From Candidatus Latescibacterota bacterium (GTDB taxonomy: Bacteria > Latescibacterota > UBA2968 > UBA8231), in assembly GCA_965200315.1 (NCBI GenBank), contig OZ241362.1, positions 128,001 to 192,000 on the forward strand: a DNA stretch of 64,000 nucleotides, in the 5' to 3' direction. The position numbers and the translations under genes were made by a program. Positions 50,765 through 54,777 of the stretch are shown piece after piece. The notes under the pieces were generated by a model. It searched no databases. It saw only the letters and a list, made by a program, of their open reading frames with translations, and was not told the DNA's origin. The first letter of the stretch is position 1. Every line of letters begins with the position of its first letter.

Positions 50765-53095
50765 TTGTCTGATGGACTTCCGATATTGAAAGTTCCGGTA
50801 ATCATGAACAATCAGAGAAATCAGCCTATGCAAGGTGCCGGACTGGAAAAGGACCTTCTACAATGCCGCGAGGCGGCTAAGTACGCCATGCGTACCACCG
50901 AACCTCGGGTTCGTGCCCTGCGCGACGTGTTGGTCGAGTATCGACAGGCCGTCGAAGAGATAGGGGTTGTAGAAAGTGAATCCAAGACTGTGCGAGAGAC
51001 AGCCGGAGAGTTCGCTGGGGAACTAGAAAAAGTCAAGGAGATATTACTTCGTCTTACCGATGAGGCAGGCAAAGACCTAGACAGTACTCTCAAAGGCTTA
51101 CAAAAGAGCAGAGGGCTCGTCACCATTGCGCTATTCGGACAAACACGTGCGGGGAAGAGTACGACACTGGAGGCGCTTACAGGTGGAGACGGTACGACTA
51201 TCGGAATCGGACGACAACACACCACGACTCAGATCAAGCAGTACTTTTGGCCTCCGAAGCAAAAGACGTTACGCATTGTAGATACGCCGGGCATTGAGGG
51301 GTTTAAGGGGGAGGAACTCGCGGCTCAGGCACATGATTTCGTCGAACTGGCTGACCATATCTTTTTTTTACTGTCAGACGACAAGGTACGAGCGGGGGAA
51401 TTAGAGCATTTCGCAGAGATACGGAGCATGGGCAAAGGAATTACTGTCCTCCTGAATGTGAAAAGAAACGACGAGGATCTGATCGAGGATCTACAGGATC
51501 CAGACTTCTCGTTTGAGGACTTGCTCGACGACTTATTCGATGAATGCAAGATCGCGGGGCATGTTCAGCGGATAGAAGAGTATCTTGAGCGCAATCACAA
51601 CATCTCTAAGCCCACGGTCTTACCGATCCACGCACGAGCCGCTTGGCTCGCTACGCAGTCAAATCACAAGAATAACGTAGAGTGCCTTCGTGAGTTAAGC
51701 CGGATTGCCTCAGTCGAGCAACGGATTCGGGAGTTTATTGAGACGGAGGCTCTCGGGGCGCGTATCGAGTCTCCGGGTCAAGCGCTGCGAAGTCATGTGG
51801 TTTCCGTCAAGGACGAGCTCAGGATATTCGCCGGGAAGTTCCGCGACAGTATGTCTCAGACGGATGAGCAACGAAAGGCACTCGAGAAGGCTGTAAGGAA
51901 CGCGGCTCAGAAGGCAAAGGGCCGGCTATCAAAGGTGAAGATGGCCTTCCAGAAAGCCGACGAGCAGATACCTATCTTGGTGGATGGGCTAATTGTGGAG
52001 CGAGGCGGAGGCAAGAAACTCCGTTCCGATTGGGAGAAAATCCTGAAGTCAAACGGCGTGGGCGATGCTCCTCAGAAGTTCGTCGCGGATGCGAGGAGCC
52101 TCTTTAAGAAGGAACTTAAGGAGCAGGTCCGTCGATTAGAATTCAATGCCAAGTTTGAGTCAAATCTCGGTGGCGTACAGTCCGAATTCAAAAAAATCGA
52201 CGATTATCGCGAAAACGATAAGTACCGACGAATAGTCCGAGCAGGCATAAAGACAGCGGGTAGTTTAGCCGGTGGTGCACTCACGACTTGGGCTATAGGA
52301 AACTTCTGGAATCCCACAGGGTGGGTTGCCGGCGCGGCCGCGGTCGTACTTTTCGGTGGAGCAGGAGCACTCGCCGGAGGAAAAGCCTCTGGCGAAATTG
52401 CTGATGAGTGGCGCAAGGCCAATCAAAAAGACCTGCGAAAGCACCGAGATGATATTGTGTATAAACTCAGGAAGGGACTGTCGGAACAGTATCAAAAAAC
52501 AAACAATGATTGCTCCGACTGGCTCAACCGGTACGAGGAAACACTGCTCAAGGACATTCAGGAACCTTTACGACAAGTATCGTACGCACAAAAGCAACTA
52601 TGGCGGACTGCTGTGGACAGCCTCGAAAAACTTGACAACCTCTTGGACAGCCTAGAGCTTGACGCAGTTACGAAGCTTGCAGAGCTTGCTGTGCCTGAAA
52701 TTAAAGAAGGCAACATCGAGCTAATCCGAGCAGTACGCTGGGAAGGACATTGTAAGCTACTCGTAGCCCCAGTACGACCTATGGACAATGTGCTAGGACG
52801 TTGCATCGGTCGTGGCGGCGAACATATAAAGAAGCTGAGGGACTTGCTTAACGGCGACCATGTCGCTTGGGTGGAATCCAAAGTGGATTTCCGAACGCAG
52901 ATCGAGCAGGCATTACGCCCCGCACACATTGATGTTCTCAACGTCGGGATTATTAACGCAGATAAACCCATCAACGTGACAGTATCCTCAGATCAGATGA
53001 AACTCGCCATTGGCAGGCACGGGTCGAACGTGAAGATGGCTGAACGCCTCCTTCAAGTCGACAGAATTAACATCAGACAATTGGGGAAAAAATGA
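50765..53095 (+). CDS. Dynamin-like GTPase (LeoBC-like) with membrane hairpin and C-terminal NusA-type KH1-KH2 domains
   Basis: G1 GQTRAGKST, G2 HTT, G3 DTPG, G4-like NVK; coiled coils; Gly-rich hydrophobic hairpin; C-terminus VPEIKEGNIELIRAVR..GRCIGRGG..ALRPA..DQMKLAIGRHGSNVKMA. Real start may be ATG 50804. Confidence 0.85.
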   Translation: MSDGLPILKVPVIMNNQRNQPMQGAGLEKDLLQCREAAKYAMRTTEPRVRALRDVLVEYRQAVEEIGVVESESKTVRETAGEFAGELEKVKEILLRLTDEAGKDLDSTLKGLQKSRGLVTIALFGQTRAGKSTTLEALTGGDGTTIGIGRQHTTTQIKQYFWPPKQKTLRIVDTPGIEGFKGEELAAQAHDFVELADHIFFLLSDDKVRAGELEHFAEIRSMGKGITVLLNVKRNDEDLIEDLQDPDFSFEDLLDDLFDECKIAGHVQRIEEYLERNHNISKPTVLPIHARAAWLATQSNHKNNVECLRELSRIASVEQRIREFIETEALGARIESPGQALRSHVVSVKDELRIFAGKFRDSMSQTDEQRKALEKAVRNAAQKAKGRLSKVKMAFQKADEQIPILVDGLIVERGGGKKLRSDWEKILKSNGVGDAPQKFVADARSLFKKELKEQVRRLEFNAKFESNLGGVQSEFKKIDDYRENDKYRRIVRAGIKTAGSLAGGALTTWAIGNFWNPTGWVAGAAAVVLFGGAGALAGGKASGEIADEWRKANQKDLRKHRDDIVYKLRKGLSEQYQKTNNDCSDWLNRYEETLLKDIQEPLRQVSYAQKQLWRTAVDSLEKLDNLLDSLELDAVTKLAELAVPEIKEGNIELIRAVRWEGHCKLLVAPVRPMDNVLGRCIGRGGEHIKKLRDLLNGDHVAWVESKVDFRTQIEQALRPAHIDVLNVGIINADKPINVTVSSDQMKLAIGRHGSNVKMAERLLQVDRINIRQLGKK

Positions 53096-54777
53096 ACGGG
53101 ATCAAATTTGGACAACAACGAGAAGCCATCCGCAAACTGCTGGAAGACTGGCAGAAGCAGATCGATGCAGAGCAAATTGATGCAGATCTGAAAGGTACGC
53201 TTCGCGCAGCGGCTGATGGTGCTTTAGAGGTCTTTGAAACGGAGGCTAAGTACCGAGTTTCATTGCTTGGGGAATTCAGTGCGGGGAAATCATCTCTTAT
53301 CATGGCACTGACGGGAGCCGAGGTTGATACGAGTCCAGGTCCCACCACTAAGGAAGCGAAGGAATTCAAGTGGAAGGGGGTGACGCTCGTCGACACTCCG
53401 GGTATCCAAGCGGAAGCCGAAAACACTGACCATGACGAAATCGCACGTGCATCAACGTTGGATTCAGATTTAATTCTCTTCGTCCTAACCAATGAGCTCT
53501 TTAATAATAGACTAGTAACTCACTTCAACTTTGTCGCCAGACCCAGCTACTTGGGGTTGGCGGGTAAAATGCTGGTGATCGTCAACAAAATGGACCGGGA
53601 AGACAAGAAGGATCGGGACGAGGAGATTATCTCCGAGGTCGAAAAAGCGATCGAACCTCTTAGCCTTCCTGTACATTTGGCGGCTGTTGATAGCTACCTG
53701 AAGAGTCAGAAATCCGATGGCAGCAGGAAGGAACGACTCTTGAAAAGCAGCCGTATCCCAGAACTCGTGGCCGCAATTGATGGATTCATCAAAGAACAAG
53801 GTGAATTGGGACGTCTTATCAGACCACTACAACTGTTTGACGCAGCGCTTGAAGAACAGCGCGATAGCCTCCTCGGTGACGATGAGAGCGCAAGCCAAGA
53901 GATGGAGAATAATCGCAGACAGAAGCGCATAGTCGATGAAGCTAACCAACAACTCACCTCGCATGCGAGCGAGTGGGTCTCGGAACTTCGACGTATTGCG
54001 CTGTCCCGCACCACCGATACACTGAATTTGGTAGCGGACGCCAAAACAAAAGAAGAACTTGAGGAACAGTTCCAAACAGCAGTCCAAGCCATCGAACCCG
54101 AGATCGACACCCACCTCGTCAACATAGACAATACCTTGCAGGGGTGGGCACGAGATTTTCAGGATAAAATCGAGGACCTCGATACGAGCGAGTTGGGAAA
54201 AAATATCCGGATTCCTAGAACTGCGGAGGGACGATCCGGTGGGTTTGAAGATCCGCTAACGCAAGGCTTCGACTTCGTTAAGGCCGGCAAAAAGATCCTC
54301 GGAGAGGGGCTTGGTTCTGTGTTAGGCAGCATATCAGAGAATCCTGAATCTGTAGTAAAATTGGTCGGCAGATTCAAAAAATTCAGACCGTGGGGAAAGA
54401 TCAAACTAGGCCAAAAAACTGCGGCGACGGCCGGAAAGGCTAGTAAGGCACTCGGTCCTCTGGCGGCGGCTGTCGACTTCTACGTGGAGTATCGAGACGA
54501 GAAAAATCGCGACGAAAAGGAACGTCAGCTAGCAAAAATACGGTTTTCTATGCAGCGAGAGTTCCAGAACATGGCCGACTGGCAAGTAAAGGAACTCCGT
54601 AAAGAACTAGATAGTATCCGAAAGGACACTATTGACAAGATGCTGCATCAGCTCGAAGAGCAGGCAGCGAAAATCGCTGCTGATGGAGCAAAGGAGAAGG
54701 AGGTGGCAGACCTCGCAAGCGAGTTCATCGGCAGAAGCCGTTCCCTGCGGAATGAGATTTCAGCCGCAGGGGATTGA
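53092..54777 (+). CDS. Dynamin-like GTPase (LeoA-like)
   Basis: GEFSAGKSS, GPTT, DTPG, NKMD; helical stalk; KFRPWGKIKLG paddle-like segment; ATGA overlap with the upstream GTPase. Confidence 0.85.
   Translation: MNGIKFGQQREAIRKLLEDWQKQIDAEQIDADLKGTLRAAADGALEVFETEAKYRVSLLGEFSAGKSSLIMALTGAEVDTSPGPTTKEAKEFKWKGVTLVDTPGIQAEAENTDHDEIARASTLDSDLILFVLTNELFNNRLVTHFNFVARPSYLGLAGKMLVIVNKMDREDKKDRDEEIISEVEKAIEPLSLPVHLAAVDSYLKSQKSDGSRKERLLKSSRIPELVAAIDGFIKEQGELGRLIRPLQLFDAALEEQRDSLLGDDESASQEMENNRRQKRIVDEANQQLTSHASEWVSELRRIALSRTTDTLNLVADAKTKEELEEQFQTAVQAIEPEIDTHLVNIDNTLQGWARDFQDKIEDLDTSELGKNIRIPRTAEGRSGGFEDPLTQGFDFVKAGKKILGEGLGSVLGSISENPESVVKLVGRFKKFRPWGKIKLGQKTAATAGKASKALGPLAAAVDFYVEYRDEKNRDEKERQLAKIRFSMQREFQNMADWQVKELRKELDSIRKDTIDKMLHQLEEQAAKIAADGAKEKEVADLASEFIGRSRSLRNEISAAGD

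Follow-up and report, generated by a model that had tools for sequence, protein, structure and literature searches.

Eleos is a two-gene, dynamin-like anti-phage system, composed of LeoBC and LeoA, that was reported by Millman et al. (2022) and received its name from Cury et al. (2022). Protection of B. subtilis by the two-gene dynamin system, as described in the available text of the Millman preprint, requires both P-loops; this P-loop dependence is described there for the B. vietnamensis system only. In the same text, the dynamin operon was co-located with defence systems in 60% of cases. Both the mechanism and the trigger of Eleos are described as unknown in the available parts of the Millman and Cury preprints and of a 2024 survey of defence systems. 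Here, we describe a locus of this kind in a 64,000-nucleotide (nt) stretch of DNA from a Candidatus Latescibacterota bacterium (assembly GCA_965200315.1, contig OZ241362.1, positions 128,001-192,000), which we call the window. The gene pair at window positions 50765-54777 encodes a LeoBC and a LeoA, and this LeoBC ends in a tail that is almost certainly a tandem of NusA-type KH domains. The system itself is known, and the tail is an apparently undescribed, widespread domain of LeoBC that is best preserved in the clade of the window protein.

The gene pair and its family

The first gene (leoBC-KH; 50765..53095, plus strand) is an open reading frame (ORF) of 776 amino acids (aa) that starts from TTG, and it encodes a dynamin-like GTPase with a hairpin and the C-terminal KH tandem. 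The second gene (leoA; 53092..54777, plus strand; 561 aa) encodes another dynamin-like GTPase, and the junction sequence revealed that the leoBC stop and the leoA start share an ATGA. A sequence-only reading of this DNA had proposed two coupled GTPase ORFs of 776 and 561 aa here, and its coordinates turned out to be exact. The real start of leoBC is probably the ATG at 50828 (or 50804), which would give a product of ~755 aa, because the close homologues measure 753-757 aa.

We compared both proteins with the profiles that PADLOC uses to annotate Eleos. The first protein matched the LeoBC profile with an E-value of 4.1e-74 (residues 52-629 on profile positions 18-593 of 601), and the second matched LeoA at 1.5e-75 (positions 7-554 of 559). 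The separate LeoB and LeoC profiles gave matches as well, LeoB at residues 297 to 627 of the first protein (positions 229-557 of 568). In Pfam, MMR_HSR1 and Dynamin_N were found in both proteins (Dynamin_N at 27.9 and 34.5 bits; cut-off 27), together with DLP_helical in LeoA (4.1e-10). The resemblance to LeoBC and LeoA noticed in the sequence-only reading was therefore borne out, and its description of the locus as a 'candidate new anti-phage system' has to be given up, since both proteins are matched at ~1e-74 by Eleos profiles that PADLOC already contains. By every sequence criterion that could be tested the pair is of the Eleos type, and we regard its membership of this family as very probable.

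The GTPase core of LeoBC (residues 120-231, nt 51122..51457, plus strand) matched MMR_HSR1 at 6.5e-12. It contains the G1 motif GQTRAGKST at residues 125-133 (nt 51137-51163) and the G3 motif DTPG at 173-176, within which G125, G130, K131, S132, D173, T174, P175 and G176 were invariant in 63 sequences. LeoA has G1 (GEFSAGKS) at residues 60-67, G3 (DTPG) at 101 and G4 (NKMD) at 165. The earlier claim that each protein has G1 to G4 thus stands for G1 and G3 in both proteins and for G4 in LeoA, and fails for G4 of LeoBC, where NVKRND occupies the place of the canonical NKxD, with N231 and K233 conserved.

A Gly/Ala-rich hydrophobic hairpin, also recognized earlier in the first protein, spans residues 495-541 of LeoBC (nt 52247..52387, plus strand; 23% Gly, 26% Ala). 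Its Kyte-Doolittle maximum in a 19-residue frame is 1.75 (residues 521-539), and it encloses a family-invariant turn, NFWNPTGW; conservation reaches 90% or more at W509, N513, W515, N516, P517, G519 and W520. The hairpin is expected to be the membrane-inserting tip of LeoBC. The AlphaFold2 model of LeoBC, built from a 63-sequence alignment, had a mean predicted local distance difference test score (pLDDT) of 81.4 and a predicted template modelling score of 0.75, with low pLDDT at the hairpin. It has the GTPase domain, helical neck/trunk and tip of the bacterial dynamin-like fold, and its Foldseek matches in the PDB were BDLP (2j69, 1e-9), LeoA (4aur, 1.3e-8), IniA (3.6e-7) and Cj-DLP (1.1e-6). 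In this model a single helix of 82 residues (561-642) leads from the hairpin region to the KH module.

The NusA-type KH tandem and its spread

The tandem occupies residues 633-772 of LeoBC (nt 52661..53080, plus strand). Pfam placed KH_5 at residues 663-723 (33.4 bits; cut-off 27) and KH_2 at 724-764 (27.6 bits; cut-off 22), and each domain retains its GxxG loop, GRGG at 682-685 in KH1 (nt 52808-52819) and GRHG at 750-753 in KH2 (nt 53012-53023). The NCBIfam model of NusA, TIGR01953, matched the same residues 633-772 with its positions 199-337 of 340 (E 9.4e-22). The score (77.5 bits) is far under the cut-off of 253.4, and the N-terminal RNA polymerase-binding domain, S1 and the acidic repeats are lacking; LeoBC is therefore not a NusA. 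When residues 620-776 were searched against the PDB with phmmer, all 15 matches were NusA chains (best, 2asb_A, 1.5e-13). The tail is modelled with pLDDT of ~88-96, and Foldseek superposed it on 2asb_A, the KH1-KH2 of M. tuberculosis NusA solved with RNA, with a root-mean-square deviation of 2.0 A over 147 columns (31% identity). Alignment of the family tail with a three-sequence NusA alignment by hhalign gave a probability of 99.7% (E 1.7e-26). These results agree with the assignment of the C-terminus to NusA KH1-KH2 in the sequence-only reading, whose quoted NusA motif strings are all present, and leave us nearly certain that the tail is a genuine NusA-type KH tandem. When a complex of LeoA (15-row alignment) with the tail (residues 630-776, 63-row alignment) was predicted twice, the score was 0.00 each time, a result that speaks neither for nor against binding of the two.

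The full NusA of the same genome is encoded elsewhere (C1:432087-433100; 406.8 bits with TIGR01953); over 141 residues, it shares 31% identity with the tail. The tail is thus, on sequence comparison, an old and diverged copy of NusA KH1-KH2 and no recent duplicate. It also lies beyond the reach of the PADLOC LeoBC profile, whose position 593 of 601 falls on residue 629, so that the 145 residues of the tandem region are left over. As the LeoBC annotation profiles stop before the tail, pipelines call such loci Eleos and leave the tail unreported.

We next considered conservation in a 70-sequence alignment of the family. The GxxG loop was present in 67 of the 70 sequences for KH1 and in 63 for KH2; the longer motifs C-I-G-x-x-G (KH1) and G-x-x-G-x-N (KH2) were present in 66-67 and 63-65, respectively, and a PE motif at residues 644-645 was kept in 62. 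The maintenance of the loops argues for selection on the nucleic-acid-binding elements. Judged by these conserved GxxG loops only, we lean slightly towards the view that the tail binds nucleic acid in the clade of the window protein.

The fusion is not special to this genome. A word-indexed protein search returned 71 matches, two of them true NusA proteins and 69 GTPases like LeoBC, with identities to the window protein going down to ~31%. In a precomputed Pfam list, PF13184 was assigned to 66 of these 69 homologues; one had PF26594 only (labelled KH_NusA_2nd in the Atlas) and two (620 and 476 aa) had neither. Named members come from Microbulbifer, Stenotrophomonas, Azospirillum, Methylomonas and Halorhodospira, and the JGI annotation of some homologues reads 'transcription antitermination factor NusA-like protein/GTPase'. 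The domains are, then, already annotated by database pipelines.

Pattern scans of species-representative genomes yielded 14 loci and those of metagenomes 16; the tail profile matched the LeoBC gene in 9 and 11 of them, respectively. LeoA lay directly 3' of the tail-bearing LeoBC in all seven complete genome loci and in all ten metagenome loci with a continuing contig; L029, L033 and L036 look like near-copies of L013, L017 and L032, and are hence not independent. This arrangement is patchily spread over at least seven phyla, the titled records being from Latescibacterota, Alphaproteobacteria, Myxococcota, Planctomycetota, Lentisphaerota, Bacillota and a metagenome-assembled genome (MAG) of Silvanigrella, which we take to belong to Bdellovibrionota. 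In the Bacillota loci L018 and L019 (LeoBC of 776 and 771 aa), which fall within the tail-bearing clade, both GxxG loops are degraded; their tails matched the family profile at 4.3e-14 and 5.5e-15, and Pfam detected no KH domain in them. A 698-aa relative on a viral contig (L040) had no direct match to the tail profile, and we base no conclusion about carriage by phages on it. In the loci L014 (Scalindua MAG, 1703-4475) and L020 (Silvanigrella MAG, 631-3469), leoBC-KH and leoA are split into several ORFs, which could be due to frameshifts, pseudogenes or assembly errors.

One representative, P0127 (1331 aa), is a natural single chain in which a LeoBC-like core (residues 11-491) is followed by a lone KH domain that retains its GxxG (665-728) and then by a LeoA-like half (793-1308). 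By the Rosetta-stone argument, this fusion suggests that LeoBC, LeoA and the KH module act together.

We then searched LeoBC without its tail (residues 1-629) against 1.84 billion representatives and obtained 1163 matches at E<=1e-3, 85 of them at E<=1e-30. The census of tails was restricted to the best 150 matches, of which the 124 with at least 600 aa were kept. Among these 124 representatives, 57 matched the tail profile directly, 33 by iteration only and 34 not at all; the last group showed no similarity to the tail (hhalign, 0.4%). Both GxxG loops were present in 16, one loop in 28 and none in 15 with a tail match, the remaining 65 being without a direct match. The tails found by iteration are degenerate. 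As a group they matched the tail at 98.1% (E 9.8e-14, 124 columns; 0.4% in a column-reversed control) and a small NusA alignment at 89.7% (E 1.9e-6). Pfam KH families were found in none of the 24 members searched of this group at E up to 0.1, and no NusA chain was among the Foldseek matches listed for the model of one degenerate-tail LeoBC, described below; the homology of the degenerate tails is therefore drawn from profile-profile comparison only.

Besides the window pair, this genome encodes another Eleos pair (C1:2832642-2836501, minus strand; loci L004 and L006), made up of a LeoBC of 704 aa, the protein of that model, and a LeoA of 576 aa. This LeoBC (C1:2834387-2836501) is the best match in the genome to the PADLOC LeoBC profile (3.6e-96). 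Both GxxG loops have been lost from its tail, which is nonetheless homologous to the KH tandem; in the model (pLDDT 79.0) the order alpha-beta-beta-alpha-beta occurs twice, and the GxxG helix-turn is absent. One genome thus holds a system with an intact tail and another with a degenerate tail. Further pairs of dynamin-like GTPase genes were observed in it at C1:1435715-1438983 and C1:5334817-5340289, with LeoBC matches of ~1e-11 to 1e-15.

In a quick, unrooted FastTree phylogeny of the core (136 rows), all 22 rows with two loops fell into one group of 34 rows that includes the window protein (support 84, not strong). Tail-bearing rows stood on either side of the midpoint, and the presence and absence of the tail required at least 15 changes. 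The simplest reading is that the tail was gained long ago and decayed repeatedly afterwards, and that the clade of the window protein keeps the canonical form; as the tree is unrooted and quick, it does not settle gain against loss. Rather than a one-off fusion, the tail thus characterizes a large clade of LeoBC proteins that is spread over many phyla, and it is degenerate in many members.

Genomic setting

Defence genes are found beside many relatives of the locus. With neighbours chosen by size, nine tail-bearing loci had a strong PADLOC match next door, in line with the association of homologues with defence islands that had been put forward as a check. GajA (7.8e-300) and GajB (7.4e-167) of Gabija lie upstream of the pair in L018. 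In L019, HEC-05 is upstream and a four-gene CBASS system (effector, cyclase, E1-E2 and JAB) is downstream. The neighbour is a reverse transcriptase in L017 (1.3e-65), a type IIG enzyme in L012 (9.6e-197), AbiEii in L011 (1.5e-25) and an IetA-like ATPase in L025. The genes mad7 and mad8 of MADS are upstream and Orf5/HEC-06 downstream in L024, ZacB and ZacC of Azaca adjoin L027, and a type I specificity (S) subunit and a DpdF-like helicase adjoin L026. This pattern agrees with the co-location figure given in the available text of the Millman preprint.

In the window, the pair lies in an islet of ~6 kb (50.7-56.7 kb) with a guanine-plus-cytosine (GC) content of ~0.50, as compared to ~0.58-0.66 in the flanks; the AT-richer islet beside toxin-antitoxin genes that had been seen before is thus real. 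Upstream of it are the housekeeping genes for PhoU, a PhoB/PhoR-like two-component pair and HupE/UreJ, and downstream, on the minus strand, those for an enolase-superfamily enzyme, a 2-hydroxyacid dehydrogenase and a PfkB kinase. Within the islet, leoA is followed by a broken PIN-like gene (54774..55290, plus strand; ORF fragments 54774-55046 and 55022-55273), a neighbour that need not belong to the system. DNA alignment with the intact 173-aa copy in the nearest relative, L010 (14016-14537), revealed a 1-nt deletion and, ~90 nt further on, a 1-nt insertion. The L010 copy matched Pfam PIN weakly (E 0.0065, below the cut-off). A small ORF follows at ~55294-55467; it is conserved, and begins in an ATGA overlap in L010. 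The PIN-like gene and the small ORF could be a decaying toxin-antitoxin-like pair, or the break could be a sequencing error.

Further downstream are a Phd/YefM antitoxin gene (55651-55977, plus strand; Pfam PhdYeFM_antitox, 3.5e-18), a YoeB toxin gene (55958-56260, plus strand; YoeB_toxin, 9.2e-31) and, on the minus strand, an HTH_3 gene. These genes are flanked by a 73-nt direct repeat, whose copies at 55477..55549 and 56750..56822 (the latter at the right edge of the islet) are 85% identical and are the only two in the 5.36-Mb genome. In the relative L010, a Latescibacterota MAG, the pair (93% protein identity) also stands between HupE and the enolase-superfamily gene, which is the same site in the chromosome (window 50705-56822 against L010 8432-16620, 90-92% identical). 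The same modules occur there in another order, with Phd-YoeB upstream of the pair instead of downstream, and L010 has in addition a gene for a PF21648 'integron cassette protein' and a 359-aa gene. The islet looks like a small variable set of shuffling cassettes, because the order of the modules differs in L010 and the 73-nt repeat brackets the Phd-YoeB and HTH genes. An integron, which the PF21648 gene in L010 and the repeat might suggest, is no more than a passing remark here, as no integrase was found and attC sites were not tested for. Elsewhere in the window, an IS200-like Y1 transposase gene was observed at 59755-60372 (minus strand; Pfam Y1_Tnp, 2.9e-6), where the local GC content is 0.42.

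Consensus promoters and terminators were no commoner than in shuffled sequences (4 versus 3.7; 8 versus 5.8), and we therefore claim no transcript ends. The stretch is present in public DNA runs labelled sponge metagenome. Contigs of two metatranscriptomic libraries from one study span 51284-56114 and 52742-56137; such contigs carry no information on level, strand or ends. In one metatranscriptomic run the operon was covered and some flanking bins were without cover, absence of cover being no evidence in itself. The contigs of the two libraries hint weakly at expression of the operon in situ, with carry-over of DNA as a possible source.

Proposed function and comparison with known systems

We propose that the locus is an Eleos-type anti-phage operon, in which binding of single-stranded nucleic acid to the KH tandem is coupled to the GTPase cycle or the targeting of a membrane-anchored dynamin pair, and we give this reading a probability of about 0.5. 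LeoBC would consist of N-terminal helices, the GTPase domain, a long helical stalk, the membrane hairpin and a return helix (561-642) bearing the KH tandem. We infer that its hairpin may insert into the inner membrane, where LeoBC and LeoA could form one heterotypic dynamin pair. The KH tandem would then bind single-stranded RNA, or possibly single-stranded DNA, that appears or is changed during infection. An RNA-sensing role, as suggested in the sequence-only reading, is in keeping with the conserved GxxG loops. Binding could be coupled to GTP-dependent assembly or hydrolysis, since the tail is expected at the GTPase-proximal end, and the resulting triggering or localization of membrane remodelling would block phage production. 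All four steps together, exactly as written here, make a doubtful proposition. In BDLP-type folds the last helix packs in the neck alongside the GTPase domain, and in Era, RNA on the KH domain feeds back on GTP hydrolysis.

Several points weigh against this proposal. The tail should lie at the membrane-distal, GTPase end of the model because helix 561-642 leads away from the hairpin like the last helix of BDLP-type proteins, a placement read from the order of helices and not from coordinates. Many relatives have the tail and yet have lost one or both GxxG loops, in addition to the 33 with a degenerate tail, so that the role of the tail across the family cannot depend on canonical nucleic-acid binding. 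No partner RNA was found with Rfam at the gathering threshold, either in the window or in eight related loci (129 kb); the window also contained no tRNA. The defence neighbours of the relatives were picked among the largest flanking ORFs without a background control, and the islet in the window itself has toxin-antitoxin genes alone as company, one of them broken. Phage defence is something we infer for this locus and its tail-bearing relatives alike.

The main rival to nucleic-acid binding takes the tail for a protein-protein or structural module, for example one that docks on or inhibits the GTPase domains or LeoA, and the GxxG loops of this clade for an ancestral leftover; the locus would still be an Eleos system, with its trigger elsewhere. 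The 28 tails with one loop and the 15 with none among the 124 representatives, the degenerate tails recognized by profile comparison and the degenerate copy at C1:2834387-2836501 in the same genome are all as this rival predicts. The retention of the loops in 63-67 of 70 clade sequences, down to ~31% identity, is however hard to explain without a function, and the confinement of all two-loop rows to one group of the core tree looks as if that clade has retained an activity that others have lost. For these reasons we consider a tail of this kind unlikely, while treating it as a serious contender.

The unmistakable NusA origin of the module invites a second idea, the alternative offered in the sequence-only reading, that it is an integrated NusA decoy which traps phage antitermination proteins or nut-like RNA and in this way signals infection to the dynamin pair. 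The matches to its fold in the PDB include NusA in the lambda N, Q and rrn antitermination complexes, and the available text of Kaur et al. (2020) describes NusA-like S1+KH modules as effector-position domains in other conflict systems. Against it, identity to the genome's own NusA is only 31%, and the tail is one diverged lineage across many phyla that does not track the NusA of each host. The parts of NusA other than KH1-KH2 are missing, and phage lambda N binds the acidic repeat of NusA. The RNA-binding loops, moreover, are gone in many relatives, and sister clades keep the tail without GxxG. Given the low identity, the missing parts and the loop-less tails, a decoy appears very improbable. 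A housekeeping or stress function, in which a membrane-repairing or vesicle-forming dynamin pair of the sort proposed for ETEC LeoABC, IniA/IniC or DynA is tied by its KH tail to RNA or ribosome-associated processes at the membrane, seems scarcely better placed. It would be consistent with the lowered vesicle release of enterotoxigenic Escherichia coli (ETEC) leoA and leoB knockouts in the available text of Michie et al. (2014), with an interaction between DynA and the KH-domain protein RNase Y of B. subtilis in the accessible account of a two-hybrid screen, and with the several further dynamin-like pairs of this genome. Such a function fits the context poorly: the islet around the pair is low in GC, rearranges, and has toxin-antitoxin genes within and housekeeping genes on either side, the tail-bearing relatives of the pair adjoin Gabija, CBASS, Azaca, MADS, restriction-modification and AbiE genes, its distribution across phyla is patchy, and a two-gene dynamin system was phage-protective in the available text of the Millman preprint.

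The proposal of a KH-coupled Eleos operon can be extended, tentatively and with a good deal less confidence, to Eleos as a whole: the tail may be ancestral to a large LeoBC clade, and Eleos may be an RNA-gated dynamin triggered by phage-derived or infection-altered single-stranded RNA. If so, nascent or antitermination-type transcripts near the membrane, for example, would switch on GTP-driven membrane remodelling, and this RNA input would have been re-tuned or lost in the lineages whose tails are degenerate. A KH module at the GTPase end of LeoBC offers a concrete hypothesis for what Eleos senses, and the natural gradient from intact to degenerate tails could be exploited for testing it. The tail would add a case in which a module of a housekeeping transcription factor, NusA KH1-KH2, is recruited into immunity, and would connect RNA recognition with immune GTPases of the dynamin type, for which the eukaryotic Mx and GIMAP proteins serve as a comparison.

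The novelty of the combination, which the sequence-only reading had suspected, is upheld within the literature searched (subscription papers and supplements being outside its scope): we found no paper that ascribes a KH domain to Eleos proteins or to bacterial dynamins themselves. The word NusA is absent from the available text of the Millman and Cury preprints and of the 2024 survey of defence systems, and the nearest item is the DynA-RNase Y link, as far as the accessible part of that report goes.

Like LeoBC, the small GTPase Era has a type II KH domain behind its P-loop GTPase domain (Foldseek, 3iev_A, 2.6e-4). Its KH domain binds the 3' end of 16S rRNA. Unlike LeoBC, Era works in ribosome assembly, has a single KH domain and lacks a stalk, a membrane hairpin and a partner GTPase; the likeness is an analogy only. 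NusA KH1-KH2 (2ASB/2ATW) shares with the tail the tandem type II KH fold and both GxxG loops, whereas the tail stands without the RNA polymerase-binding domain, S1 and acidic repeats, with a full NusA elsewhere in the genome. BDLP, Cj-DLP1/2, IniA/IniC and DynA share the overall fold and the tandem-gene or fused-pair organization; DynA is a fused pair, comparable to the single-chain LeoBC-KH-LeoA form P0127. We know of no KH or other nucleic-acid-binding domain in the remaining paired bacterial dynamin-like proteins. None is named in their PDB titles or in the available text of the LeoABC paper.

The nucleoside triphosphate-dependent conflict systems of Kaur, Burroughs, Iyer and Aravind (2020) are alike in having recruited NusA-related RNA-binding modules; in the available text, the module differs by including S1 and by standing in the effector position of vWA-type systems, and the word dynamin is absent from that paper. 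The LeoA/LeoB/LeoC proteins of ETEC (Michie et al. 2014) are of the same family (Foldseek, 4aur, 1.3e-8). In the part of that paper available, LeoC (206 aa) and LeoB (572 aa) together take the place of the first protein, and the proposed role is vesicle release. ETEC LeoC and LeoB seem to be without the KH tail, because the LeoB profile ends ~11 positions past the start of the tail.

The closest known system remains Eleos, with which the comparison was made through profiles and not through the validated B. vietnamensis sequence; a search started from a Bacillota member returned no named Bacillus vietnamensis protein among its matches. The window locus has the same adjacent genes in the order LeoBC to LeoA, near full-length PADLOC matches, P-loops in both proteins and relatives with defence neighbours, and it differs in that its LeoBC continues past the PADLOC profile into the KH tandem.

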